A DNA stretch of 64,000 nucleotides from an uncultured Eubacteriales bacterium. Lineage in GTDB: Bacteria; Bacillota; Clostridia; Christensenellales; UBA1242. The stretch is from the NCBI GenBank assembly GCA_948806215.1, contig CAQIDI010000002.1, forward strand, positions 12,968-76,967, given 5' to 3'. The position numbers and the translations under genes are program-made. Positions 899 through 47,259 of the stretch are shown in pieces. The notes under the pieces were generated by a model. It was not told the origin of the DNA and did no database searches. It saw nothing but the letters and a program-made list of their open reading frames with translations. Position 1 is the stretch's first letter, and each line of letters begins with the position of its first letter.

Positions 899-1057
899 CT
901 ATCTTATTATAGTTTGAGCAAAATTAGTTGTAGCGCGAGTTATTTCTTGCAAATCACCATTTGTGCCATTACAAGCAAAAACAGCAAAAAGAACGCTTAC
1001 AGCAACAACAGCAACAACAATAGCCCAAGAGAACTTGCTTCTCATTAATTTTTTCAT
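899..1057 (-). CDS. small hydrophobic protein, possibly a lipoprotein or membrane peptide
   Basis: The tracked ORF is 899..1084. The internal start MKKLMRSKF at 1057 follows a purine-rich AAGGTGGGG stretch. It has a single hydrophobic segment ending in FAC. Confidence 0.4.
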   Translation of the reverse strand: MKKLMRSKFSWAIVVAVVAVSVLFAVFACNGTNGDLQEITRATTNFAQTIIR

Positions 1058-10038: not shown

Positions 10039-10067
10039 TTTTAATTTTAAATTATCTGTGCTACAAT
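10039..10067 (+). promoter_or_regulatory. extended -10 promoter of the aspS leader
   Basis: TGcTACAAT at 10059-10067 with a weak -35 TTTTAA at 10039-10044 (17-nt spacer). Confidence 0.45.
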
Positions 10068-10120
10068 ATTTTTAGTATCCACTTTAAAGTGGCTACAAAT
10101 TAAAAGGAAACACTTAAGTT

Positions 10121-10180
10121 ATGAAATTTATTTTTGTTGATAATAACAATAATAATAATAATCTAAACATAACACATTAG
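10121..10180 (+). CDS. putative leader peptide MKFIFVDNNNNNNNLNITH (Asp plus seven consecutive Asn codons)
   Basis: ATG is preceded by AGGA (10105-10108). Codons 7-14 are GAT AAT AAC AAT AAT AAT AAT AAT. Followed by the terminator at 10216-10257. Not in the ORF track because it is short. Confidence 0.55.
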   Translation: MKFIFVDNNNNNNNLNITH

Positions 10181-10215
10181 AATGGGTTTTCTTTTTATTT
10201 GCTTTGTTAAAAAAC

Positions 10216-10257
10216 ATAACACTTGAAAGGTTAAACTCCGTTCAAGTGTTATTTTTT
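10216..10257 (+). terminator. intrinsic terminator (attenuator) between the leader ORF and aspS
   Basis: 12-bp perfect stem ATAACACTTGAA / TTCAAGTGTTAT (10216-10227 with 10241-10252), then TTTTT. It lies upstream of the aspS SD (AAGAGG 10275-10280). Confidence 0.75.
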
Positions 10258-10290
10258 AATTTAAAATAAAAATCAAGAGGTTATAAAAAA

Positions 10291-12027
10291 ATGAGTACTT
10301 ACAGAACACACACATTAGATAAAATAGAGGAATCGGTAATTGGATCGCGTGTTACTCTTTCGGGCTGGGTAGCAAGCATTCGTGACCACGGCGGAATTTT
10401 GTTTTTAGACCTTCGTGACCATTATGGAATGGTGCAAGTGGTTTTAAAAGATGAAACAATGCTAGAAGGCGTTTGTCGTGAAACAGTTATTATGGTGGAA
10501 GGCGAAGTTATTAAACGCGCCGAAGCCGACTACAACGAAAAACTAAAATCTGGCAAAGTTGAATTAAAAGCCGAAAAAGTAACAATTCTTGGTAAGAGCA
10601 AAAACATTTTGCCTTTTGAAATTGCCGATAGCAAATCGGTTAACGAAGATACCAGATTAAAATATCGTTACCTAGACCTTAGAAACCCATTAATGCAACA
10701 AACATTAAAACTTCGTAGCGATTTAACTTACGACCTTAGAACTTGGATGCGTGAACTAGATTTTACCGAAGTTCAAACACCCCTACTTTCCTCCTCTAGC
10801 CCAGAAGGTGCACGCGACTTTTTAGTTCCTAGCCGACTACACAAAGGTTGCTTTTATGCTTTACCACAAGCACCACAACAATTTAAGCAACTGCTTATGG
10901 TTGCCGGAATGGATAAATATTTTCAAATTGCGCCTTGCTTTAGAGATGAAGACGCCCGAGCCGACCGTTCTCCTGGAGAATTTTATCAATTAGATATGGA
11001 AATGAGTTTTGCTACGCAAGAAGATGTTTTTGAAGTTATGGAAAACATATTATATAAAGCTTTTAGCAAATATGGTAAATTTCCAATTAGCAAACCACCT
11101 TTTGCACGCATTCCTTATAAAGAAAGTATGTTAAAATATGGAACTGATAAGCCAGACCTTAGAAACCCAATTATTATTAAAGACTTAACTAAGGTTTTCG
11201 AAAAAACCGAATTTGGTGCTTTTAGCGGAAAAACCGTTCACGGTTTTGCAATTAGTTGTGCTGGAAAATCTCGTAAGTTCTACGATGGATTACAAGATTA
11301 TATCTTATCACAAGGTGCTAAAGGTTTAGCTTGGGTTGCTTATCAAGCAGATGGAACTTTAAAAGGTCCTATTATTAAATTTATATCCGAACAAGAGCAA
11401 GCCGATTTAATTAAGGAAACCGAAGCTAAAATTGGTGATGACATTTTCCTAATTGCAGACGAAGAAAAAATGTGCAACAAACTTTGTGGTTTGTTTAGAA
11501 CTGAAATTGCTAAACAACTTGATATTATTAAAAAAGATAGCTACGAATTTTGCTGGATTATTGATTTTCCAATGTATGAGCTAAACGAAGAAACTGGAAA
11601 AATAGATTTTTGCCACAACCCATTTAGTATGCCTCAAGGCGGACTTAGTGCCCTTACAGAGAAACAACCATTAGATATTCTTGCTTATCAATATGATGTT
11701 GTTGTTAACGGAATTGAACTTTCAAGCGGTGCTGTTAGAAACCACGACCTAGATATTATGGTTAAAGCTTTTGAAATTGCTGGTTACGATGAAGAAACCA
11801 TCAAACAAAAATTTAGTGCTTTATATGAAGCATTTAAGTATGGTGCTCCTCCTCACGCAGGCATTGCACCAGGGCTTGATAGAATGTTAATGCTATTATT
11901 AGATGTTCCATCAATTAGAGAAGTTGTTGCTTTCCCACTAAACTCTAAAGCAGAAGACCCTATGATGAAGGCTCCAAGTGCTGTAACTGAACAACAACTA
12001 CGCGAAGTACACATTAAAATTAGATAA
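10291..12027 (+). CDS. aspS: aspartyl-tRNA synthetase, bacterial type
   Basis: 578 aa with an N-terminal OB fold, QAPQQFKQ, motif 2 FRDEDARADR, a large insertion domain typical of bacterial AspRS, and motif 3 GLDRMLML. Confidence 0.95.
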   Translation: MSTYRTHTLDKIEESVIGSRVTLSGWVASIRDHGGILFLDLRDHYGMVQVVLKDETMLEGVCRETVIMVEGEVIKRAEADYNEKLKSGKVELKAEKVTILGKSKNILPFEIADSKSVNEDTRLKYRYLDLRNPLMQQTLKLRSDLTYDLRTWMRELDFTEVQTPLLSSSSPEGARDFLVPSRLHKGCFYALPQAPQQFKQLLMVAGMDKYFQIAPCFRDEDARADRSPGEFYQLDMEMSFATQEDVFEVMENILYKAFSKYGKFPISKPPFARIPYKESMLKYGTDKPDLRNPIIIKDLTKVFEKTEFGAFSGKTVHGFAISCAGKSRKFYDGLQDYILSQGAKGLAWVAYQADGTLKGPIIKFISEQEQADLIKETEAKIGDDIFLIADEEKMCNKLCGLFRTEIAKQLDIIKKDSYEFCWIIDFPMYELNEETGKIDFCHNPFSMPQGGLSALTEKQPLDILAYQYDVVVNGIELSSGAVRNHDLDIMVKAFEIAGYDEETIKQKFSALYEAFKYGAPPHAGIAPGLDRMLMLLLDVPSIREVVAFPLNSKAEDPMMKAPSAVTEQQLREVHIKIR

Positions 12028-21633: not shown

Positions 21634-23670
21634 TTATACCTTGCTAAATTGGCTATTATATAGATTATAATAGAATCCTTGTTTTTTAAGAAGTTCGGCG
21701 TGAGTACCTTGCTCAATAATGTTTCCTTTGTTCATAACCAGGATTAAATCGGAATTAACAATGGTGCTTAACCTGTGAGCAACCACAAAACTTGTTCGAT
21801 TTTGCATCATAGTATTAAATGCATTTTGAATTAAAGTTTCGGTTCTAGTATCAATATTAGATGTTGCTTCATCTAATATTAAAATTTTTGGTTTTAATAA
21901 CATTATTCTTGCAATACAAATTAACTGTTTTTGGCCTTGCGATAAGTTATCGCCATTTTCGTTAATCATTGCATCATAGCCGTTTTCCATTGTTTGAATA
22001 AAGTCGTGAGCGTGTGCTAGTTTTGATGCTTTTATTATTGCATCCATAGAAGCATTTGGATTTCCGTAAGCAATATTTTCTTTAATGGATGCAGCAAACA
22101 ACCAAGTATCCTGTAACACCATACCATAACTATCACGCAAACTAGCTCTGGTTATATCGGTAATTGGTTCTCCAGAAACCTTAATTGTTCCACTGTTAAC
22201 ATCGTAAAAACGCATTAACAAATTAATCATTGTGCTTTTGCCACAGCCTGTAGGCCCAACAATTGCAACCTTCCAACCATTTTCAACCCTTAAGTTTAAG
22301 CCTTCAATAAGTTTTTTGTTTGGAGTGTAGCTAAAGCTAACATCGTTCATTTCAACTGTGCCATCACAATTTTCTAACACTTTATTATCTGCATCACTAA
22401 CTTCATCATCAATACTTAAAACATTAAACACCCTGCGTGCAGCAGTATAAGCCGCTTGAACATCGGTAAAAATTGAAGAAAGTTCATCGAATGGTTGAAC
22501 ATATTTATTTGCATATTGAAGAATAACAGAAACCGAACCTATTGAAATACCACCAGAAATTGCAGTAATAGTTCCCATAATAGCAACAATACCATAAATA
22601 ACGCCATTAATAAATCTAGCAACCGGACCTGATAATGCAGAATAGAAATTTAGTTTTTCTGATACTGCACCAACTTCGTGGTTTATTTTATCAAATTTTT
22701 CTAATGCTTCATCTTCATAACTAAAAGCTTTTAAAACTTTTTCGTTACCAAGCATTTCAACAATATTTCCAGATAGGTCTCCGTTTAGTTTTGCATTTCT
22801 TCTAAAGAACTTATCGGATTTAATTGTTATATATGCAGTTGCTGCAATAGATATTGGAGTTAATGCTATAATAGCTGCCGAAATTGGCACATTAATTGTG
22901 AACAAGATATAAATTAATAGCACTATTGTTGCAAAACAATCAATAAACGAAGTTAAACCTTCTAAAAACCCATCGGTTATATCTTCAACATCGTTAATCA
23001 TACGGCTTTGCAAATCGCCTTGTGAACTACCATCTATATATTTTAGCGGAACAGTGTTAAACTTTTTAAACAATGCTTCGCGTATCGAGCGAGATGTTTT
23101 ATAACCAACAATGCTTTCTGTGAAGTTTGTTAACCACCTAGTAACTGCATATCCAGTTGCGGTTATTGCCAACCAAACTAATATTGTTGATAACCTTGAA
23201 AAATCTACATCTCCAACTCCCACTATGCAATCGATTGCCTTACCAGAAAGAATTGGCACAAATAATTCTAATGCAGAAGTTATAAGCGACAAAATAACCG
23301 AGGCCACCATCCAATACCAATGCTTCCCAACAAATTTGAAAAATCTTAGTAGGATTTTTTGTTTCTTTTTATCAGGTCTATGCAATCTTTCTAATTTAGT
23401 ACCCTGAGTTAAAATTGGTGTAGGGTCAATAATTTTGTTGCGTTGCATATTTTTTTCTTCGTTAGTAGCAGTATCAAGTTTATAAAGCGATGCTGGTGCA
23501 ACCTTTTCTACTATTGGTGTTGGTTGCACTTTATCTGGATTATTAAAACTTGGTGGTGGAAGATCTTTTAATTGCTTTTGTAAATCTCTAAACTCTTTTT
23601 GAGTCATATGAGCAGGTTTTACTTTTGCTTTAGACTTTACTTCCTTTTCCTTTATATTCTTTTTATCCAT
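21634..23670 (-). CDS. ABC exporter subunit (fused permease-ATPase) with a roughly 100-aa Lys/Pro-rich N-terminal extension
   Basis: 678 aa with a 6-TM exporter domain, Walker A GPTGCGKST, signature LSQGQKQ and Walker B ILILDEATS. Confidence 0.9.
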   Translation of the reverse strand: MDKKNIKEKEVKSKAKVKPAHMTQKEFRDLQKQLKDLPPPSFNNPDKVQPTPIVEKVAPASLYKLDTATNEEKNMQRNKIIDPTPILTQGTKLERLHRPDKKKQKILLRFFKFVGKHWYWMVASVILSLITSALELFVPILSGKAIDCIVGVGDVDFSRLSTILVWLAITATGYAVTRWLTNFTESIVGYKTSRSIREALFKKFNTVPLKYIDGSSQGDLQSRMINDVEDITDGFLEGLTSFIDCFATIVLLIYILFTINVPISAAIIALTPISIAATAYITIKSDKFFRRNAKLNGDLSGNIVEMLGNEKVLKAFSYEDEALEKFDKINHEVGAVSEKLNFYSALSGPVARFINGVIYGIVAIMGTITAISGGISIGSVSVILQYANKYVQPFDELSSIFTDVQAAYTAARRVFNVLSIDDEVSDADNKVLENCDGTVEMNDVSFSYTPNKKLIEGLNLRVENGWKVAIVGPTGCGKSTMINLLMRFYDVNSGTIKVSGEPITDITRASLRDSYGMVLQDTWLFAASIKENIAYGNPNASMDAIIKASKLAHAHDFIQTMENGYDAMINENGDNLSQGQKQLICIARIMLLKPKILILDEATSNIDTRTETLIQNAFNTMMQNRTSFVVAHRLSTIVNSDLILVMNKGNIIEQGTHAELLKKQGFYYNLYNSQFSKV

Positions 23671-23678
23671 TTTATCCC

Positions 23679-25403
23679 CTACTTTGTTTGTGAATCGTTA
23701 ATTTCTTTATAAACATCACAGTTTTGCATAAGTTCGCTATGCTTACCAATACCAACAACATTGCCTTTATCAAGCACAACAATTTGATCTGCATTTTTAA
23801 CTGAGTTAACACGCTGTGAAACAATAAACACTGTCATATCTTTAGTATCGTTTTTTATTGCCGACCTAAGTGCCGCATCGGTTGCAAAGTCTAACGCACT
23901 AGCACTATCGTCTAAAATTAAAAATTCAGGATTTCCAACTAACGCACGAGCAATTGTTAAACGCTGGCGTTGTCCACCAGAAAAGTTTTTTCCGCCGGCT
24001 TGAACTTTAAAATCAAGTTTACCATCTAATTCGTTAACAAATTCTTCCGCCTGTGCTGTTTTAATTGCTTTAAAAATTTCTTCGTCTGATGCATCTTCTT
24101 TTTTGAAGCACATATTTTCGCGAAGCGAACCACTAAACAAAACTGCTCGTTGTGGCACAACTCCAATAATTTCACGAAGTTGAATTAAATCTAAATCGGT
24201 AATATCTTTTCCATAAATTTTAACTTTGCCTTTTGTTGCATCGTAAAATCTTGGAATTAAGGAAACAACTGTTGTTTTTCCGCTACCAGTTCCACCAATA
24301 ACTCCAATGGTTTGCCCACGCTTAACTTTTAAACTTAAATTGTTTAATGCGTTTTTGCTTGCCCCCTGATAACCAAACGATACATTTTTAAACTCAACTG
24401 CAAACTCGCTTTTTCTATCGTCTTCATTAAACAGATATGCATTTTCTGGGCTTAGTATTGATGGTTTAGTATTAAATACTTCGGTTATTCTGTTGTTACA
24501 GTTAACCGCTTTAATTAACGAAATAATAATATTGGCAAGAGTAACAAGCGATGCTCCAATTTGTTTTAGATAGTTAATAAACGCTGTTATATTACCAACA
24601 GTTAAAGTTCCTAGGTTAACATCGATTGCACCAAACCATAATATCGCAACAATTGCAAAGTTTAAAACAATACTGGTTATCGGATTTAAAATTGTTGAAA
24701 CAATAGAAACATTAACACTAGAATTCATAAGTTGTTTTGTTACAACACTAAATCGATTTTCTTCATATTCTTGTTTGTTAAATGCTCTAATAACACGAGA
24801 ACCTTGCAAGTTTTCACGAGTAACATCGGAAACTTTATCTAGGTTTTTTTGTGTTCTATCGTAAAGCGGAATTGTTGCTTTTAACAAAAACCAAACAATA
24901 ACAAATATAACTGGTGCAACAACTAAGAAAACTAAACTTAATTTTAAGTTGATTGAAAGTGCCATAATTAATGCACCCACAAGCAAAAATGGCACGCGAG
25001 TAACATTACGGAACACTTGTGAAACAGCTTGACGAATACGCGAAACATCGTGTGTTAAACGGTTATTAAGCGATGCTGTTGAAAACTTATCAATTTCGGC
25101 GTGCGAAAATGTGGTTATGTGTTTAAATAAGTCGGTACGAAATTTAACCGCAACTCCGCTAGAAGCTTTTGCAGCCATTTTTTGACATACAACCGCCGAT
25201 AAAATTCCAACAACATTTAGCCCTAAAACTATTGCTCCATAAATATAAATATGGTTTGCGTCTCTATTTGCAACCCCCACATCAATCATTGATGCAACAA
25301 GTAACGGAATAATTAACTCCGTTATGGTTTCAATAAGTTTTGCAAGTGGTGCAATAATAGTTTCTTTTAAATAATCTTTCAAGTATCCCTTTAATCTTTT
25401 CAT
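23679..25403 (-). CDS. ABC exporter subunit (fused permease-ATPase), partner of 21634..23670
   Basis: 574 aa with GGTGSGKTT, FSGGQRQR and LILDDSASALD. The Walker B ending DD instead of DE suggests a degenerate site, as in heterodimeric exporters. Confidence 0.9.
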   Translation of the reverse strand: MKRLKGYLKDYLKETIIAPLAKLIETITELIIPLLVASMIDVGVANRDANHIYIYGAIVLGLNVVGILSAVVCQKMAAKASSGVAVKFRTDLFKHITTFSHAEIDKFSTASLNNRLTHDVSRIRQAVSQVFRNVTRVPFLLVGALIMALSINLKLSLVFLVVAPVIFVIVWFLLKATIPLYDRTQKNLDKVSDVTRENLQGSRVIRAFNKQEYEENRFSVVTKQLMNSSVNVSIVSTILNPITSIVLNFAIVAILWFGAIDVNLGTLTVGNITAFINYLKQIGASLVTLANIIISLIKAVNCNNRITEVFNTKPSILSPENAYLFNEDDRKSEFAVEFKNVSFGYQGASKNALNNLSLKVKRGQTIGVIGGTGSGKTTVVSLIPRFYDATKGKVKIYGKDITDLDLIQLREIIGVVPQRAVLFSGSLRENMCFKKEDASDEEIFKAIKTAQAEEFVNELDGKLDFKVQAGGKNFSGGQRQRLTIARALVGNPEFLILDDSASALDFATDAALRSAIKNDTKDMTVFIVSQRVNSVKNADQIVVLDKGNVVGIGKHSELMQNCDVYKEINDSQTK

Positions 25404-25595: not shown

Positions 25596-25829
25596 TTAGT
25601 CAATCCAAAGAACTTTATTAGCTAGAAGAATTGTGATCATATCAACTAACCAGAAAATAGCTGGACAAACAAATAACATGATGATTGCTAAAACAATACC
25701 AAGAACATTGTTTTTGTTTAAGCTTCTGCATAAACGATAAACAGCCCAAACGATATCCAAAACTGGTAATGCAAGAATGAATTTAACAATTTTTGGAAGT
25801 CCATCAAATGCTTTTACTATTCCTTTCAT
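25596..25829 (-). CDS. small two-TM membrane protein
   Basis: 77-aa ORF with two hydrophobic helices, an SD-like AAGGAGTAGGG upstream, and its own terminator. Confidence 0.6.
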   Translation of the reverse strand: MKGIVKAFDGLPKIVKFILALPVLDIVWAVYRLCRSLNKNNVLGIVLAIIMLFVCPAIFWLVDMITILLANKVLWID

Positions 25830-26181: not shown

Positions 26182-27567
26182 TTAATATTCACAATTTTTT
26201 GGTGTTCTAGGAAATAATAAAACATCTCTAATGTTACTAATTCCGGTTACATACATTAAAAATCTTTCAAATCCAAGCCCATAACCACTATGTTTAACCG
26301 AGCCGTATTTTCTAAGATTAACATACCACCAATAGTCTTTTTCTTTTAAACCGCATTCGGCAAGTTTAGTTTTTAAAACATCTAGCCTTTCTTCTCTTTC
26401 GCTTCCGCCAACCATTTCGCCAATGCCTGGAACTAAAAGGTCGCAAGCTCTAACTGTTTTTCCGTCATCGTTTAAACGCATATAGAACGCCTTTATTTGT
26501 TTAGGATAATCAGTTACAAACACTGGGCAGTTAAACACTTTTTCACACAAGAATTTTTCGTGTTCCGATTGCATATCGCAACCCCAGAAAGCTTTAAACT
26601 CAAATTTATCGTTGTTCTCTTCTAATATTTTAATAGCATCGGTATAAGTTAATCGTTTAAAATCGCTATTAACAACTTTATTTAATCTGTTTAATAAATC
26701 GTTATCAACAAATTGGTTAAAGAAGTTTAACTCATCGGCGCAATTAACCAATAAATCGTTAATTAAATATTTTACCATTTTTTCTATTAAATCCATAACA
26801 TCGTTTAACTCGCAAAATGCAACTTCGGGTTCTATCATCCAAAATTCGCTTGCGTGCCTTGTGGTGTTACTGTTTTCACTTCTAAAGGTTGGTCCAAAAG
26901 TGTAAATTTTAGAAAATGCTAAAGCTAAAGCTTCGCCTTCTAACTGTCCGGTTGGAGTAAGAAAAACTGGTTTTCCAAAAAAGTCGTTTTCTGGTGTTGC
27001 ATTTTCTAATGATTTTTTATCGTAAACTTTGTGAGTAGTTACTCTAAACACATCGGAACCACCTTCGCAATCTGCCCCAGTAATAATTGGAGTGTGAACA
27101 TAAACAAAACCATTTTCGTTAAAAAATTTGTGAATTGCATATGCCGCTTTACTTCTAACGCGGAACACCGAATTAAATAAATTTGTGCGTGGTCTTAAAT
27201 AAGCAATTTCACGCAAAAATTCAACACTATGACGCTTTTTTTGTAGTGGATATTCTGCATCGGTTTCGGATAGAACTTCCACTAAAGAAGCTTGAAGTTC
27301 AAACGGTTGTTTGTTGTTTGGTGTTAAAACAATTTTACCTTTAATTAAAACCGAACTTCCTGTGTTTAGTTTTGACACAACATCGTAATTAATTAAGTTG
27401 GCATTAACCACAACTTGAAGCGACTTAAAACAAGTTCCATCGGTTAAATCAATAAAAGCAAATGTTTTTAAATCTCTGGAACTTTTAACCCATCCACCAA
27501 CAGTTACTGTTCCGCTTATATAATCGTTAACATTATCGTATAATTTTTTAATATCTAACTTTTCCAT
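26182..27567 (-). CDS. asnS: asparaginyl-tRNA synthetase
   Basis: 461 aa, class IIb, with FRSENSNTTRHASEFWMIEPE and C-terminal GYGLGFERFLMY. It lies 15 nt downstream of the archaeal-type aspS. Confidence 0.9.
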   Translation of the reverse strand: MEKLDIKKLYDNVNDYISGTVTVGGWVKSSRDLKTFAFIDLTDGTCFKSLQVVVNANLINYDVVSKLNTGSSVLIKGKIVLTPNNKQPFELQASLVEVLSETDAEYPLQKKRHSVEFLREIAYLRPRTNLFNSVFRVRSKAAYAIHKFFNENGFVYVHTPIITGADCEGGSDVFRVTTHKVYDKKSLENATPENDFFGKPVFLTPTGQLEGEALALAFSKIYTFGPTFRSENSNTTRHASEFWMIEPEVAFCELNDVMDLIEKMVKYLINDLLVNCADELNFFNQFVDNDLLNRLNKVVNSDFKRLTYTDAIKILEENNDKFEFKAFWGCDMQSEHEKFLCEKVFNCPVFVTDYPKQIKAFYMRLNDDGKTVRACDLLVPGIGEMVGGSEREERLDVLKTKLAECGLKEKDYWWYVNLRKYGSVKHSGYGLGFERFLMYVTGISNIRDVLLFPRTPKNCEY

Positions 27568-27582
27568 TCTTACTCCTTAAAA

Positions 27583-28869
27583 CTATGGATTAATTCTATT
27601 TGGTCCACGGAAAATAAATTCTGCTTCTTTAATGCTTTGAATATTTAACATTAACATAATAATTCTATCTAGTCCCAAGCCAAAACCACCGTGTGGAGGG
27701 CAACCATATTTAAAGAACTCTAAATAAAATTTAACATCTTCGCCCAAACCTTTTTCTTCGGCTTGTTGCTTTAAAATTTCATATCTGTGTTCACGCTGAG
27801 CACCAGTTGTTATTTCAACCCCTCTCCAAATTAAATCGTAACCTTGAGGCACTCCGTTTTTTCGCATATGATAGAATGCGCGTTTATCCTTTGGATAATC
27901 GGTTATAAACATAAATTCGTGGTTAAACTTATCCTTAGCTAGTTTATAAACTAATTTTTCGGCTTCGGTTGATAAATCTAATTTATCTTCGTCGGTTGGC
28001 TTATAGCCATATTTTACAATTTCAGAATAAACATCGGCTAATTTCATTCTTGGAAAAGGTTTTGTAGGAATAATAACTTGTGTTCCAAAAACTTGTTCAA
28101 TAATTTCGCCATACTCTTGTTTAACTTTTGTTAACGCGTAAATTAACAAATCTTCTTCCAAACTAATAACATCTTCAAACGATTCGATATAACTAAATTC
28201 AATATCAAAACCGGAAAATTCGGTTGCGTGCCTATTGGTGTAACTTTGTTCTGCTCTAAACACAGGACCACTTTCAAAAATTCGTTCAAAACCTGCAGCC
28301 ATTGCCATTTGTTTATAAAATTGTGGGCTTTGAGCAAGATATGCTTTTTTATCAAAATATTTAACTTCAAAAACATCCGAACCGCTTTCGCTAGCTGTTC
28401 CAATTAGTTTTGGTGTGTGGATTTCGATAAATTTATTATTTAACAAAAATTCTCTTAAGGCATTTGTAAAACAACTTTGAATTTTAAAAATAAGAATATT
28501 TCTTTCACTTCTTAAATCAATCCAACGATAGTCTAGGCGGTTATCAATGTTAGCATTATCCATAATTGGTAATGCTTCGGCGTGAGAAGTTACTTCCACT
28601 TTTGTTGGAATAAACTCTACTCCCCCCATTTTAACATATTCACTAATAACACTTTTACCAGTAACGCTTACAACACTATTTGCAATTGTACCTTTTAATG
28701 CTTCAACAATTTCTGGCATTTTTTCTTTTTCGATGGTTACTTGAATTTTTCCGCTAATATCTCTAACAACCAAAAAAATCATATATTTAGAATCTCTAAA
28801 TTTTTCAACCCACCCCATTATTTTACTTTCTTTTTCTGGAACTAATTCGTTAATATAAGTTCTTTGCAT
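27583..28869 (-). CDS. aspS: aspartyl-tRNA synthetase, short archaeal/eukaryal type
   Basis: 428 aa with no bacterial insertion domain. Motifs are AQSPQFYKQ, FRAEQSYTNRHATEF, GAQREH and GFGLGLDRIIML. Confidence 0.85.
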   Translation of the reverse strand: MQRTYINELVPEKESKIMGWVEKFRDSKYMIFLVVRDISGKIQVTIEKEKMPEIVEALKGTIANSVVSVTGKSVISEYVKMGGVEFIPTKVEVTSHAEALPIMDNANIDNRLDYRWIDLRSERNILIFKIQSCFTNALREFLLNNKFIEIHTPKLIGTASESGSDVFEVKYFDKKAYLAQSPQFYKQMAMAAGFERIFESGPVFRAEQSYTNRHATEFSGFDIEFSYIESFEDVISLEEDLLIYALTKVKQEYGEIIEQVFGTQVIIPTKPFPRMKLADVYSEIVKYGYKPTDEDKLDLSTEAEKLVYKLAKDKFNHEFMFITDYPKDKRAFYHMRKNGVPQGYDLIWRGVEITTGAQREHRYEILKQQAEEKGLGEDVKFYLEFFKYGCPPHGGFGLGLDRIIMLMLNIQSIKEAEFIFRGPNRINP

Positions 28870-28893
28870 AATTTATCTCCTTTAATTAATATT

Positions 28894-28921
28894 AAAAAAA
28901 CCCTTAAAAAAATTTAAGGGT
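28894..28921 (-). terminator. intrinsic terminator (attenuator) between the leader ORF and the aspS2-asnS operon
   Basis: Minus strand ACCCTTAAA-tttt-TTTAAGGGT followed by TTTTTT. It is located 13 nt before the SD (AAAGGAG) of aspS2. Confidence 0.7.
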
Positions 28922-28983
28922 AAATTTATTTAATTACTTAAATTGCTTTGGAACTAAAAAAGCCTACCCAATTATATGTGTAA

Positions 28984-29028
28984 TTAAAAGTTATTATCGC
29001 AATCATCAACTTTAATAATCTTTTTCAT
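28984..29028 (-). CDS. putative leader peptide MKKIIKVDDCDNNF (three Asp and two Asn codons in the last seven)
   Basis: ATG is 7 nt after AGGA, downstream of the promoter at 29050-29079 and upstream of the terminator at 28894-28921. Not in the ORF track because it is short. Confidence 0.5.
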   Translation of the reverse strand: MKKIIKVDDCDNNF

Positions 29029-29049
29029 ATTTTGTTCCTAACACTTGTA

Positions 29050-29079
29050 ATTCTAGCACTTTAATTATTTAGCAGTCAA
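29050..29079 (-). promoter_or_regulatory. promoter of the aspS2-asnS leader
   Basis: Minus strand TTGACT (29079-29074), an 18-nt spacer, then TAGAAT (29055-29050). Confidence 0.55.
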
Positions 29080-29120
29080 CAATTAACCACTAATTTATTT
29101 TAGTTTGTTGTGTTGTTTTT

Positions 29121-30020
29121 TTATTTACGCGCATTGTTTAAAAAGTTTCCCGAAACCGAAGATTTACTTTGTAAGTGCGCATCTTGTTCTGGAGTTAAAC
29201 TAAAATTGCATTTTTTAATAGCATTATAAATTCTATTATGAATAACATCCATATTTTTAAAAATTATTTTTTGCTGATTAGCATTCATACAATTAGTAAA
29301 TGCAGTAAAATCGGCAAATGCCGAATAAATTTTTTTGGCAACATCAAAATCGCTAACATTAACTGGTTCTTCTATTTTTTTGTTAACAGCTAAATCAACA
29401 AACGAAAATCCATTGTTTTTATCAAATAAAAAGTTTTCCGAACGAGAATCGTCAATACTAACACCTTGTTGCATTAAAATTTTAAAATCTCTAACAAACT
29501 TAATATATAGTGCGGTGTCGCAATCCTTTAACATTCTTTGCATTTGCGAATTATATCTAAACATCGCGTTTCCAATATCGTTTTTTTCGAAGTACTCAAT
29601 TTTCCCTTCACGCTCTAATTCAGAACTAGTGTGAGAATCATCCAAAACGCCTTTGCCATAAGTTATTGCTCTGGCTGTTGAAGGATAATAAATGCTAAGA
29701 GCATTACCCGGAGCACGCTCTTGAAGTTCATAAAAATGATGCTTTCCACTAAAGCACGCACACAACCTTGGGGTGTTAATTTTATAGGCTTCAATTAAAT
29801 TATCTAACACTTCTTTTTTTAATTTATATTGTTCTTCACGGTAATCAGTCATAGTTTCATATTTATCAATATTTTTTAAAACAACATAATTACCATAATA
29901 ATAACAATAAGAATATGTACCTTTAACATCGGGTGCTTTTTTACGCCTAATTTCTGGCACGCAAGTATTAAATAAATAATGGTAAGATTTCATTTCGTCT
30001 AATAATCTTATTTTACCCAT
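29121..30020 (-). CDS. protein-kinase-like fold protein (uncharacterised family), paralog 2
   Basis: 299 aa with VVLK, FYELQERAPG, DDSRSEN (D-x4-N) and FVDLA. It aligns along its length with 20442..21377. Confidence 0.55.
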   Translation of the reverse strand: MGKIRLLDEMKSYHYLFNTCVPEIRRKKAPDVKGTYSYCYYYGNYVVLKNIDKYETMTDYREEQYKLKKEVLDNLIEAYKINTPRLCACFSGKHHFYELQERAPGNALSIYYPSTARAITYGKGVLDDSHTSSELEREGKIEYFEKNDIGNAMFRYNSQMQRMLKDCDTALYIKFVRDFKILMQQGVSIDDSRSENFLFDKNNGFSFVDLAVNKKIEEPVNVSDFDVAKKIYSAFADFTAFTNCMNANQQKIIFKNMDVIHNRIYNAIKKCNFSLTPEQDAHLQSKSSVSGNFLNNARK

Positions 30021-43667: not shown

Positions 43668-45410
43668 TTGATTAAGATACTAAAATTTTTAAAACCATAT
43701 TGGAAACTGGTAACCATAACTTGCATAATATTGTTGGTTCAAGTTATTTCAAATTTATTTGTTCCTAACTTGCTTGCAAATATGATTAAGTGCATTAAAC
43801 CACAACTTGAAAATTCGGCAATTATAGAAATTGTTGAACGAGGTGCAATAGCACTTGGTGTTGTTTTGGCTGTTATTGCTTGCCAAATCACAACTTCGTA
43901 TTTATCCAGTAAAATTGCAATGGCTTTTGGTAGAGATGTTAGAAAAGCTGTTTTTGAAAAAACACAACGCGTTGCTTTAAGCGAATTTTACTCAATTTCT
44001 ACTTCTAGTTTAATAAACAGAACAACAAACGATATTACTCAAGTTCAACAGGTTGTGTTAATGGCATTTAGAGTTATGCTTAATGCACCAATAATTTTAA
44101 TTGGCGGTTGCTTTATGGCTTTTAGTCTAGATGTTGAACTACCTTTTGTTATTCTTGCTTGTGTGCCTGTTTTAATTGCTTTGTTTTTAATTATTGGCAA
44201 ATTTATTGTTCCGTTATTTAAGCAGATGCAAGTTGCTGTTGATAAACTAACAGTTGTTGCCCGTGAAGATTTAACTGGTGTTAGAGTTATTCGTGCGTTT
44301 AATAACGATGAAGTTGAAAACGAACGTTTTAAAAAAGCCAACGAAACAGTTAGAAATATAAACACAAAAGCTAATATGCTTATGGGCTTTAATATGCCTG
44401 CTGTTGAATTTATATTTTCTATAGTAATGTTGTTAATTGTTTATTTTGGAGCATTAAAAGGAACAGGCATTGCCGATATTACTGCTTTAACACAATATGG
44501 AATGCGCATTATGATGGCGTTTGTTATGATGATTATGGTGTTTATTATGGTACCGCGTGCTAGTGCTAGTGCAAACCGTATTAACGAAATTTTAAATTTG
44601 CCAGAAACCATTCTTAGCAACGATAAAGTTAAAACTTATGTCAATTTAGATAATGCAAAAGGCAAACTAGAATTTAAAAATGTAACTTTTCAATTTCCTG
44701 ATGCCGATGAGCCAACACTAAAAGATATTAGCTTTAAAGTTGAACCAAACCAAACATTAGCAATTATTGGCGGAACTGGCAGTGGCAAAAGCACTGTTAT
44801 TAACTTAATACCTCGCTTTTACGATGTTACAAATGGCGAAATACTATTTGACGATGTTGACTTGCGAGATTATAACCCAACCGACCTTCGTTCAAAAATT
44901 GCATTGGCCAGCCAAAAAGTTGAACTGTTTAGTGGCACAATAATGGAAAATCTTAAATACGGAAATCCTAATGCAACCGAAGAAGAAATTAAAAAAGCGT
45001 GCAAACTTGCTTGTGCCGACACCTTTATTGAGGAAAAAGAAGATGGATATAATTATGTTATTCAAAAGGGTGCTGGAAACCTTAGTGGTGGGCAAAAGCA
45101 AAGGCTTAACATTGCAAGAGCTATTATTAAAAATCCAAAGCTATTTATTTTTGATGATAGCTTTAGCGCACTAGATTTTAAAACCGACGCGCAAATTAGA
45201 AAAAACATTAAAGAAAATGTTAAAGATGCAACTATTATTATTGTTGCTCAGCGCGTTAACACAATTATGAATGCCGATAACATTTTAGTTTTAAACGATG
45301 GCAATGCAGTTGGTTATGGCTCACACGAAAAACTTATGAAATCCTGTCCAGAATATAAAGAACTGGTTGAAAGCCAAACAAAACAAAATAAAGTTAAAGG
45401 AGGAAAATAA
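43668..45410 (+). CDS. ABC exporter subunit (fused permease-ATPase)
   Basis: 580 aa with a TTG start after AAGGAG. Motifs are GGTGSGKST, LSGGQKQR and FIFDDSFSALD (degenerate Walker B end). Confidence 0.9.
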   Translation: MIKILKFLKPYWKLVTITCIILLVQVISNLFVPNLLANMIKCIKPQLENSAIIEIVERGAIALGVVLAVIACQITTSYLSSKIAMAFGRDVRKAVFEKTQRVALSEFYSISTSSLINRTTNDITQVQQVVLMAFRVMLNAPIILIGGCFMAFSLDVELPFVILACVPVLIALFLIIGKFIVPLFKQMQVAVDKLTVVAREDLTGVRVIRAFNNDEVENERFKKANETVRNINTKANMLMGFNMPAVEFIFSIVMLLIVYFGALKGTGIADITALTQYGMRIMMAFVMMIMVFIMVPRASASANRINEILNLPETILSNDKVKTYVNLDNAKGKLEFKNVTFQFPDADEPTLKDISFKVEPNQTLAIIGGTGSGKSTVINLIPRFYDVTNGEILFDDVDLRDYNPTDLRSKIALASQKVELFSGTIMENLKYGNPNATEEEIKKACKLACADTFIEEKEDGYNYVIQKGAGNLSGGQKQRLNIARAIIKNPKLFIFDDSFSALDFKTDAQIRKNIKENVKDATIIIVAQRVNTIMNADNILVLNDGNAVGYGSHEKLMKSCPEYKELVESQTKQNKVKGGK

Positions 45411-45411
45411 T

Positions 45412-47259
45412 ATGTCTGCACAAAAAAAGAGCGGACCACACGGTGGACCTCCTGGAATGGGCGCAGTTGAAAAGCCTAAAAACTTTAAAGGAACTTTTAA
45501 AAAGTTTTTAAAAGAATTAAAACCTATTAAAATTCCTATTATATTAACTTTTATTTTTCTAACAATTTCGGTTTTAGTTACTGTTTATGCTCCAAAACTA
45601 TTAGGTCAAGCGTTAACCGAAGTTACTAAATATATTACAACTAATAACTCCGAAACACTAAAAACCATTATTACACTAATAATTATTATGGGTGTGCTTT
45701 ACTTTATTAATTTTATTTTTGGTTTAATTAGCCACCTATTAATGGGTAAAGCAAGTGCAAAAGTTACTTATTCGTTAAGAGAAAGATTAAAAAACAAACT
45801 AACAAAGTTACCGCTTAACTTTTACGACACTCGTGAAACCGGTGATGTGCTTTCGGTGTTTGTTAACGATATTGACAACATTGGTCAAAGTTTGCAGCAA
45901 GCTTTGCAACAAGTTATTTATAGCATAATAACATTAGTTGGCGTGCTTGTTATGATGTTAACAATTAATTTTTGGTTAACACTAATTGTGGTTGTAATGC
46001 TTCCTTTATCAATGATTTTAACAGGTTTTGTTATGAAGCATAGCCAAAAATACTTTGCTAGGCAAGCATCCGACTTGGGTAAAGTTAACTCTCACATAGA
46101 AGAAATTTACACAAATCAAAAAACAGTAAAATCGTTTACAAACGAAGATAAAGCAATTAAAGAGTTTGATGAATACAACAACAAACTTTACGAATCTGGT
46201 CAAAAAAGTCAATTCTTTTCGGGACTACTTCACCCATTAATTAATTTTACAAACAACTTTGGATATGTTGTTTTAAGTTTGGTTTGCTGCATATTTATTT
46301 TAAATGGAATTTCAAGCGGGCAAGAGCACTTTGGAATTTTTACCACAATGCTTGAGTTTGGATACTTAGTAACCTTTTTAAACTATAGCCAACAATTCAC
46401 TCAACCAATATTAAGTCTTGCACAAATTATGAATATGTTTCAAACAACCTTAGCCGCTAGCGAGCGTGTGTTTGAAATTTTAGATAGCGAAGAAGAAGTT
46501 TACTTACCTGTTACAAATTCGTTTAATAAAGTTAAGGGCGATATAACTTTTGAACATTTAAAATTTGGTTACACTCCTAACAAAATTTTGTTAACCGATG
46601 TTAATTGTAAAATTAAAAATGGTCAGATGGTTGCAATAGTTGGCCCAACAGGTGCAGGAAAAACTACAATTGTTAATTTGATAATGCGTTTCTACGAACT
46701 AAACGATGGAAAAATAACTATAGATGGAACAGATATTAAAACAGTTTCGCGAAATAATTTGCGTGAACGAATTGGAATGGTTTTACAAGATACTTGGTTG
46801 TTTAGTGGCACTATTATGGATAACTTAAAATACGGCAATCCTACCATTAGTGAAGAAGAAGTTATTGAAATTTGCAAAGCTGTGCACGCACACCACTTTA
46901 TAACAACCTTAAGCGATGGCTACAACACAGTTATAACCGAAAATGTTACAAACATCTCGGCTGGGCAAAAACAGTTATTAACCATTGCCAGAGCATTAAT
47001 TGCTAAGCCTGATATTATGATATTAGACGAAGCAACATCTAACATTGATACCCGAACTGAAGTTTTAATTCAAAAGGCTATGAAAGTTGCAATGCAAAAC
47101 CGAACCAGTTTTGTTATTGCACACAGGCTTTCAACCATTGTTAACGCCGATAAAATTTTGGTTGTTAATAATGGCGACATTGTTGAACAAGGTAATCATA
47201 ACGAACTAATTAAAGCAAAAGGGTTTTATTATAATTTATATAACAGCCAATTTAGTTAA
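45412..47259 (+). CDS. ABC exporter subunit (fused permease-ATPase), partner of 43668..45410
   Basis: ATG at 45412 follows AAAGGAGG, directly after the upstream stop. Motifs are GPTGAGKTT, ISAGQKQ and ILDEATS. The tracked ORF starts upstream at 45367. Confidence 0.9.
   Translation: MSAQKKSGPHGGPPGMGAVEKPKNFKGTFKKFLKELKPIKIPIILTFIFLTISVLVTVYAPKLLGQALTEVTKYITTNNSETLKTIITLIIIMGVLYFINFIFGLISHLLMGKASAKVTYSLRERLKNKLTKLPLNFYDTRETGDVLSVFVNDIDNIGQSLQQALQQVIYSIITLVGVLVMMLTINFWLTLIVVVMLPLSMILTGFVMKHSQKYFARQASDLGKVNSHIEEIYTNQKTVKSFTNEDKAIKEFDEYNNKLYESGQKSQFFSGLLHPLINFTNNFGYVVLSLVCCIFILNGISSGQEHFGIFTTMLEFGYLVTFLNYSQQFTQPILSLAQIMNMFQTTLAASERVFEILDSEEEVYLPVTNSFNKVKGDITFEHLKFGYTPNKILLTDVNCKIKNGQMVAIVGPTGAGKTTIVNLIMRFYELNDGKITIDGTDIKTVSRNNLRERIGMVLQDTWLFSGTIMDNLKYGNPTISEEEVIEICKAVHAHHFITTLSDGYNTVITENVTNISAGQKQLLTIARALIAKPDIMILDEATSNIDTRTEVLIQKAMKVAMQNRTSFVIAHRLSTIVNADKILVVNNGDIVEQGNHNELIKAKGFYYNLYNSQFS

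Follow-up and report, generated by a model that had tools for sequence, protein, structure and literature searches.

The window analysed here, a 64,000-nucleotide stretch from the genome of an uncultured bacterium (~31% GC, present in >150 assemblies), carries on its minus strand a two-gene operon for aspartyl- and asparaginyl-tRNA synthetases, and it is the short leader in front of this operon, with its candidate leader peptide and terminator, that concerns us. The first gene, aspS (27583..28869, ATG at 28869), encodes an archaeal/eukaryal-type AspRS of 428 aa (NF003483, 446 bits vs. a cut-off of 353), and the second, asnS (26182..27567), which begins 15 nt past aspS, encodes an AsnRS of 461 aa (NF003037, 647 bits vs. 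a cut-off of 414); a terminator picked up by a terminator scan at 26180-26158 follows asnS. A preliminary description of this DNA, made from its letters alone, had proposed an archaeal-type aspS-asnS operon at this place, headed by an attenuator, and both gene assignments are borne out by these above-cut-off matches.

Read along the minus strand, the leader opens with a sigma-70-type promoter (-35 TTGACT at 29079-29074, -10 TAGAAT at 29055-29050) with an 18-nt spacer and a TG ahead of the -10 (TGcTAGAAT, i.e., an extended -10); promoter scoring of 29050..29079 gave 10/12 consensus matches with the TG present. Past it lie a Shine-Dalgarno sequence (AGGA, 29039-29036), 7 nt ahead of an ATG, and a candidate leader peptide, that is, an upstream open reading frame (uORF) of 14 codons plus TAA (29028-28984) encoding MKKIIKVDDCDNNF. 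The codons read ATG AAA AAG ATT ATT AAA GTT GAT GAT TGC GAT AAT AAC TTT TAA, in which the candidate regulatory block GAT GAT TGC GAT AAT AAC (29007-28990) supplies three Asp, two Asn and one Cys codon, with 5/7 codons being Asp or Asn. The preliminary description had placed a promoter TTGACT-18-TAGAAT at 29079-29050, an AGGA-led 14-codon ORF with three Asp and two Asn among its last seven codons at 29028-28984, and a hairpin plus U6 at 28921-28894, 13 nt before the aspS Shine-Dalgarno; all three were found there, the extended -10 being an addition.

Between the uORF and aspS, inside the 5′ untranslated region, an intrinsic terminator is predicted (ACCCTTAAA-TTTT-TTTAAGGGT, 28921-28900, terminator scan, -10.0 kcal/mol), and its T6 run (28899-28894) stands 25 nt ahead of the aspS ATG. 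In the RNA, numbered with position 1 at window 29043, this terminator occupies positions 123-144 and consists of a 9-bp stem, ACCCUUAAA and UUUAAGGGU around a UUUU loop, followed by U6. The aspS Shine-Dalgarno (AAGGAG, 28882-28877) comes next, its GGAG (from 28880) lying 13 nt past the T-run. We considered, and rejected, the notion that the hairpin is solely the terminator of the upstream 299-aa gene, because a conserved promoter intervenes, because the U-run is just 25 nt from the aspS ATG, and because in a related locus (L088, see below) a separate terminator for the upstream gene is placed before the promoter.

To place the codon content of the uORF against chance, all ATG ORFs of 7-41 codons were collected from both strands of the 32 intergenic regions of the window (n = 83) and ranked by Asp+Asn density. 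The first was MKFIFVDNNNNNNNLNITH (7/7 codons) and the second MKKIIKVDDCDNNF (5/7), the third-best reaching 3/7, and both top-ranked ORFs are sense-strand uORFs ahead of the two aspS genes of the window, each with a Shine-Dalgarno. Shuffling the 251-nt leader 3000 times with dinucleotides preserved produced an ATG ORF of at least 5/7 Asp or Asn codons at a frequency of 0.0003, and in a separate 3000 with a Shine-Dalgarno required the frequency was 0.0007. As an empirical control, we scanned the 400 nt 5′ of aspS in 180 fetched loci with this aspS type, and a dense (at least 4/7 Asp or Asn) ATG uORF with a Shine-Dalgarno was found only in the species of the window (L081-L085) and in four further relatives (L086/L087 and L095/L096). 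The Asp/Asn enrichment of the uORF is non-random, and the preliminary statement that the coincidence of two such leaders is hard to ascribe to chance agrees with the top-two ranking and with shuffle probabilities of ~3e-4 to 7e-4.

The second of these leaders (10050-10290, plus strand) precedes a bacterial-type aspS (10291-12027, plus), the second aspS of the window. Its uORF (MKFIFVDNNNNNNNLNITH, 10121-10180, plus), with a Shine-Dalgarno, counts eight Asn codons (seven of them in a row) and a single Asp codon, and is followed by a terminator (AUAACACUUGAA...UUCAAGUGUUAU plus a U-run, 10216-10257, plus, -15.4 kcal/mol); the earlier claim that both Asp/Asn synthetase units carry a cognate-codon uORF and then a terminator thus holds. 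The motif GGGUUUUCUUUUU begins 3 nt past the stop codon, and the GGGU at 10184-10187 opens a predicted antiterminator. The sister leader has the classical geometry, with region 2 (the antiterminator 5′ strand) beginning where a ribosome halted at the stop codon would cover it. By eye the two leaders are alike (MK.I..VD followed by Asp/Asn residues; ACACAU..AAU.GGGU...CUUUUU). An nhmmer search with a hidden Markov model of the aspS-asnS leader, however, did not detect the sister leader, and common descent of the two is therefore not established.

Relatives of the leader were sought at two distances, by protein scans of species-representative genomes and Joint Genome Institute (JGI) metagenomes for the distant ones and by exact-protein look-ups for the closer ones. 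The species-representative genomes and JGI metagenomes yielded AspRS of at most 70% and 67% identity, respectively, none with the leader, and in most such distant relatives the promoter lies directly ahead of aspS with no leader between. Closer to the window, loci L081-L085 belong to the same species and have a leader ~98% identical, the uORF of L085 reading MKKIIKVDDCNNNI (D11N and F14I). The uORF reads MKNIIKVDDDCNNI in L086 and L087 (AspRS 93% and 92% identical) and MKKIIKIDDCNNF in L095 and L096 (82%). L088 (AspRS 89%) holds a degenerate uORF remnant, GTG AAA AAT GAT TGT TAA, and is without GGGUAGGC; L089 and L090 (86%) have no uORF; in L091 and L092 (85%) aspS is relocated behind hisS and a T-box; and L093/L094 (83%), L097 (75%), L179 (77%) and L180/L181 (76%) lack the leader. 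The closest AspRS relatives carry Clostridia or Bacilli labels of metagenome-assembled genomes, and the nearest relatives come mostly from animal-gut samples (roe deer, rabbit, goat, sheep and human).

Seven syntenic leaders were compared (the window, L085-L089 and L095). A promoter of the form TTGAC(T/G)-N17-18-TAnnAT and the terminator are common to all seven; the promoter, Shine-Dalgarno and ATG are retained in L085-L087 and L095/L096, and the (A)AGGA is retained in L086, L087 and L095 despite changed flanking bases. The terminator stem core CCCUUAA/UUAAGGG is unchanged in 7/7 leaders. The pair at its foot varies between A-U (three leaders), G-C (one) and C-G (one), which amounts to two independent double changes; by this alignment, compensatory changes have occurred at the terminator foot. 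The conservation and covariation proposed earlier as a check were thus found in part: the uORF is kept in L085-L087 and L095/L096 and the terminator foot is compensatory, with the uORF lost or degenerate in L088 and L089/L090.

Among the uORF-bearing leaders, the Asp/Asn block takes the forms DDCDNN, DDCNNN, DDDCNN and DDCNN. The only point substitutions within it are GAT->AAT and AAC->AAT, both staying within Asp/Asn, and the indels are whole GAT codons, in frame; these changes are few in number, and GAT repeats can slip. They match the pattern expected if codon identity as Asp or Asn is what matters, as far as an alignment of this size suggests. From the Shine-Dalgarno through GGGUAGGCUUUUUU, identity to the window is 92% in L086, 90% in L087 and 85% in L095, vs. 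69%, 70% and 63% at aspS third codon positions and 91%, 88% and 62% in the linker, and the GGGUAGGCUUUUUU block is invariant across all uORF-bearing leaders. On these alignments, the uORF block appears to be under purifying selection relative to aspS third positions and linker.

The leader also contains a candidate antiterminator. The preliminary description had noted that GGGUAGG (28969-28963) can pair with UUUACCC (28924-28918), overlapping the terminator foot, and had taken this as a 7-bp antiterminator; the complementarity and the overlap stand, but the seven pairs are merely the foot of an imperfect 16-17-pair helix between RNA positions 75-92 (28969-28952) and 109-126 (28935-28918). We refer to its 5′ strand as region 2 (GGGUAGGCUUUUUUAGUU, 28969-28952, minus strand, from folding and alignment) and to its 3′ strand, which overlaps the ACCC foot of the terminator, as region 3 (AAUUAAAUAAAUUUACCC, 28935-28918, minus). 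The 2:3 helix is the minimum-free-energy fold of the transcript ending before the terminator 3′ arm in L086 and L087, and, with the uORF masked, in L095 and the window; RNAalifold recovers it as well. The diverged L095 has ...AAAAAAAUCGCCC for region 3, and its pairing with GGGU(A)GG...UUUUUU, itself unchanged, is retained by U-A->U-G and G-U->G-C changes. The antiterminator is thus predicted by folding, and in the model is maintained in L095 by one-sided changes.

Upstream of region 2, the last sense codons of the uORF, its stop codon and the 3′ flank form a putative region 1 (AACUUUUAAUUACACA, 28992-28977, minus), which would be the anti-antiterminator partner of region 2. A longer candidate exists, in which the 3′ half of the uORF, GAUUGC...AACUUUUAAUUACAC, pairs with GGGUAG...AGUU...GCAAUU, the components of this extended 1:2 helix being GAUUGC/GCAAUU, AACU/AGUU and UUAC/GUAG. 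As a candidate from modelling, it would make the Asp/Asn codons part of region 1 and explain two conserved islands, the uORF UUGC (Cys codon region) and a GCAA in the otherwise diverged linker (28946-28943, minus), which are complementary and may pair. It is tempting to speculate, too, that a small hairpin (UUACAC/GGGUAG) followed by CUUUUUU is a pause signal letting the ribosome catch up.

Aminoacyl-tRNA synthetase genes in Firmicute-like bacteria are classically controlled by T-boxes. The leader was compared with these and other known RNA families. An Rfam scan returned nothing at gathering threshold and, over 801 nt of the locus (28600-29400), no T-box at E-values up to 10; the sole match inside the leader was manA-II at chance level (16.1 bits vs. 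a gathering threshold of 100, E ~5.6), and four further matches at E up to 10 fall outside it. True T-boxes in relatives score 94-130 bits. A regular expression for the T-box sequence (AGGGUGGNACCGCG) has no match in the leader and matches L010, L052 and L062. The leader is also without a Stem I, K-turn, specifier loop or UGGN bulge (it reads UAGG), and neither anticodon-loop mimicry nor a UGGN acceptor-binding bulge was seen on inspection of the conserved block. A T-box or other known RNA family was rejected on the Rfam scan (gathering threshold, E up to 10) together with the failed regular expression.

T-boxes do stand ahead of the archaeal-type aspS in a few relatives, in L062 (2759-2931), L052 (2725-2911) and L010 (~2900), and ahead of hisS-aspS in L091/L092 (~1000-1250); the L062 T-box has a GAC (Asp) specifier and the bulge UGGC. 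The same gene would thus lie under two different charging-sensing leaders in related lineages, and since relatives regulate this aspS by an Asp-specifier T-box, sensing of tRNA-Asp charging is the expected logic here. The two devices would share their place, their gene, a terminator/antiterminator output and presumably the tRNA-Asp charging input. In contrast to the T-box (RF00230), which reads uncharged tRNA by direct RNA-RNA contacts, a translated uORF would do the reading here.

Overall, we hold it moderately probable, from the alignments and predicted folds, that the leader is a ribosome-mediated transcription attenuator responding to how much charged tRNA-Asp and tRNA-Asn is available. 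This reading is favoured because it explains both the codon content and the conserved translation signals, as well as the terminator/antiterminator pair, the parallel leader and the T-box in relatives; for it, we infer translation of the uORF, ribosome stalling, the identity of region 1 and the direction of regulation. Transcription would start ~7 nt past TAGAAT and the 14-codon uORF would be translated. With Asp-tRNA and Asn-tRNA plentiful, the ribosome would finish and leave. Region 2 would then be tied up, either with region 1 or in local hairpins, and RNA polymerase would be halted 25 nt before aspS at the terminator (ACCCUUAAA/UUUAAGGGU plus U6). With either charged tRNA scarce, the ribosome would stall on GAU GAU UGC GAU AAU AAC and cover region 1, leaving region 2 (GGGUAGGCUUUUUUAGUU) free to pair with region 3 (AAUUAAAUAAAUUUACCC), which would sequester the ACCC foot and allow read-through into aspS-asnS.

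Several observations weigh against this attenuation model. The uORF is degenerate in L088 and missing from L089/L090, and all three retain promoter and terminator. An attenuator of this kind needs neither the invariant Cys codon nor the conserved N-terminus MKKIIK. The L085 leader (~150 nt) carries 5 substitutions though its aspS coding sequence is 99.9% identical, a divergence that recombination or fast leader evolution may have caused; two of the 5 (L085:2786-3004 vs. window 28866-29085) alter the uORF (D11N, F14I). Mechanically, the antiterminator overlaps just 4 nt (ACCC) of the 9-nt 5′ arm of the terminator, and GGGUAGG is 14 nt past the uORF stop codon, out of reach for a terminating ribosome, which would not cover region 2. 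The 1:2 helix is the minimum-free-energy fold only in L095 (-11.8 kcal/mol), with -8.2 vs. -10.1 in the window and poor values in L086/L087. Constrained folding, suggested earlier as a check, was carried out with the ribosome footprint masked and gave no consistent switch: the antiterminator forms at any ribosome position in L086, L087 and L095, and with masks at each Asp/Asn codon or the stop the 2:3 pairing is erratic in the window and hardly altered in L086/L087. Finally, Johnson and colleagues reportedly found in 2020 that uncoupling of transcription from translation is frequent in Firmicutes.

These difficulties give some room to the main rival, which we regard as unlikely but worth weighing: a conditional terminator under a trans-acting factor, with the uORF secondary or incidental. 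The factor could be a tRNA, a small RNA or an RNA-binding protein (e.g., one of the synthetases, binding its own mRNA), and would target the UAAUUACACAUAnAAnUGGGUAGGCUUUUUU block or the terminator region. Such a target would fit the nucleotide conservation, which extends 30 nt past the stop codon at a level as high as within the uORF, and the invariance of the CCCUUAA/UUAAGGG core in 7/7 leaders; it would also fit the persistence of the terminator without the uORF in L088 and L089/L090 and the lack of a clear switch in the ribosome-mask folding. The cognate-codon packing of the ORF, the Asp/Asn-only substitutions with their in-frame indels and the Asn run in the other aspS leader are all left unexplained by a factor of this kind, however, the conserved block that it would bind is missing from L088 and L089, and no Rfam family, T-box features or anticodon-like loop were found in the leader of the window.

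In the L088 (1588-1808) and L089 (2322-2504) leaders themselves, we observed a Shine-Dalgarno-like AAGGAG complementary to the 5′ arm of the terminator, pairing AAGGAGUAAA with UUUACCCUU in L088 and UAAGGAGU with ACCCCUUA in L089, by which folding predicts an alternative antiterminator in these two loci.

A simpler explanation, to which we give a rather low probability, is that the terminator is constitutively leaky, or that the hairpin is a stabilising or insulating 5′ structure, setting a fixed low level of aspS-asnS transcription with no regulatory role for the uORF. The stem is indeed short, AU-rich and of -10 kcal/mol, it is common to all seven leaders, unlike the uORF, and AT-rich DNA readily yields Asn and Asp codons; yet the density of these codons is far beyond background, the uORF block is under purifying selection vs. 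third codon positions and linker, the antiterminator is maintained in L095, and a parallel architecture precedes the second aspS.

That the 14-codon ORF is instead a gene for a small peptide (e.g., one that signals or is modified), ending at a terminator of its own and leaving aspS-asnS to read-through, seems very improbable to us. The peptide is kept at the amino-acid level as MKKIIK(V/I)DD..C..NN, Cys included, across AspRS identities of 82-100%, and the ORF has its own Shine-Dalgarno and a terminator after it, but no modification or export genes adjoin it, it is always located in the aspS leader, it is lost in close relatives, and its counterpart ahead of the other aspS has the kind of Asn homopolymer run that regulatory leaders typically show. 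Least credible of all is a degenerate or miniature T-box with an antiterminator stabilised by uncharged tRNA-Asp or tRNA-Asn, which true T-boxes ahead of the same gene in relatives and the faint likeness of UGGGUAGGC (in the antiterminator 5′ strand) to the start of the T-box sequence AGGGUGGNACC might suggest, but which runs against the missing T-box match at E-values up to 10 on the 801-nt region, the missing Stem I, K-turn and specifier loop, the UAGG in place of the UGGN bulge, and the mere ~75 nt upstream of the antiterminator, taken up by the uORF.

Among known systems, the attenuation model has its closest analogue, as regards its proposed working, in the E. coli pheST attenuator, in which a 14-residue leader with 5 Phe and then a terminator precede the PheRS genes; the trp/his/leu class is resembled more generally. 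Common to pheST and the leader would be a 14-codon cognate-rich leader ORF, a terminator before a synthetase operon, an alternative antiterminator pairing and, by analogy, more synthetase when charged tRNA is low. They differ in that the codons here are Asp plus Asn, matching the two enzymes of the operon, that there is no sequence or Rfam relationship, that the host is of ~31% GC with Clostridia/Bacilli relatives rather than a proteobacterium, and that 14 nt separate the stop codon from region 2 and region 1 is poorly defined.

Predictions of His-leader attenuators exist for the B. cereus group, Peptostreptococcaceae and Erysipelotrichales (PMC9413887), which places this type of switch outside proteobacteria as well. 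Like these and the trp/his/leu/thr attenuators, the leader has a Shine-Dalgarno, a short ORF with a run of regulatory codons, an antiterminator and a terminator; unlike them, it precedes synthetase rather than biosynthetic genes, mixes two amino acids in a run interrupted by Cys, and belongs to no Rfam leader family. Experimental support for ribosome-mediated transcription attenuation in a Firmicute comes from B. subtilis bmrB-bmrCD, where, as proposed here, translation of a leader ORF sets the fate of an intrinsic terminator (PMC4191407). Stalling there is antibiotic-induced and the terminator lies inside the ORF, whereas here the trigger would be a shortage of Asp/Asn-tRNA and the terminator lies ~60 nt past the ORF. 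A search of the literature available to the analysis for Asp- or Asn-codon leader peptides, or for attenuators of aspS or asnS, found nothing relevant.

Considering the two leaders together, the small attenuation regulon put forward in the preliminary description keeps its promoter, cognate-rich uORF, terminator, antiterminator and second leader; nhmmer does not link the two leaders by descent. A broader proposal, that this lineage of uncultured low-GC gut bacteria replaced the Asp T-box of its relatives with a two-leader Asx (Asp/Asn) attenuation regulon, is one that we put forward tentatively and would not yet call probable: an Asn-rich leader for the bacterial-type AspRS and a mixed Asp/Asn leader for the archaeal-type AspRS-AsnRS would both read tRNA-Asp/tRNA-Asn charging by stalling. 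If true, the two would be the first Asp/Asn-specific leader-peptide attenuators, the two AspRS paralogues would answer to different signals, and coupling in a Firmicute-like lineage would be tight enough for such control; the pair offers a testable hypothesis as to why two AspRS enzymes are kept here beside an AsnRS.

For the aspS-asnS leader by itself, an Asp/Asn specificity would be new for a leader peptide, and a gene under an Asp T-box in relatives and under a leader-peptide attenuator here would, if the reading is true, show one charging sensor taking over from another in nature. The interest would lie in this specificity, in the occurrence of the device at synthetase genes in a T-box-dominated group and in its bearing on transcription-translation coupling, while in principle it would be unsurprising. 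The mechanism requires RNA polymerase to be followed closely by a ribosome, and its confirmation would therefore bear on how widespread uncoupled transcription and translation are in low-GC Gram-positives.

The neighbours of the leader are an acyl-ACP thioesterase, the unannotated 299-aa upstream ORF, which is without a family match, and the synthetases themselves. A 77-aa hydrophobic ORF (25596-25829, minus strand), also without a family match and with its own promoter-like site and terminator, is kept directly 3′ of asnS in L081-L087 and L089/L090. At 899-1057 (minus) lies a small ORF with a lipoprotein-type signal peptide (MKKLMRSKFSWAIVVAVVAVSVLFAVFAC...), and a homopolymer-like uORF signal at ~950-1080 was discarded as an out-of-frame translation of this small lipoprotein signal peptide rather than a leader. 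Elsewhere in the window, MsbA-like ABC exporter genes that each fuse permease and ATPase stand in two separate tandem pairs, at 21634-25403 (minus) and 43668-47259 (plus), and these pairs look like heterodimeric exporters.

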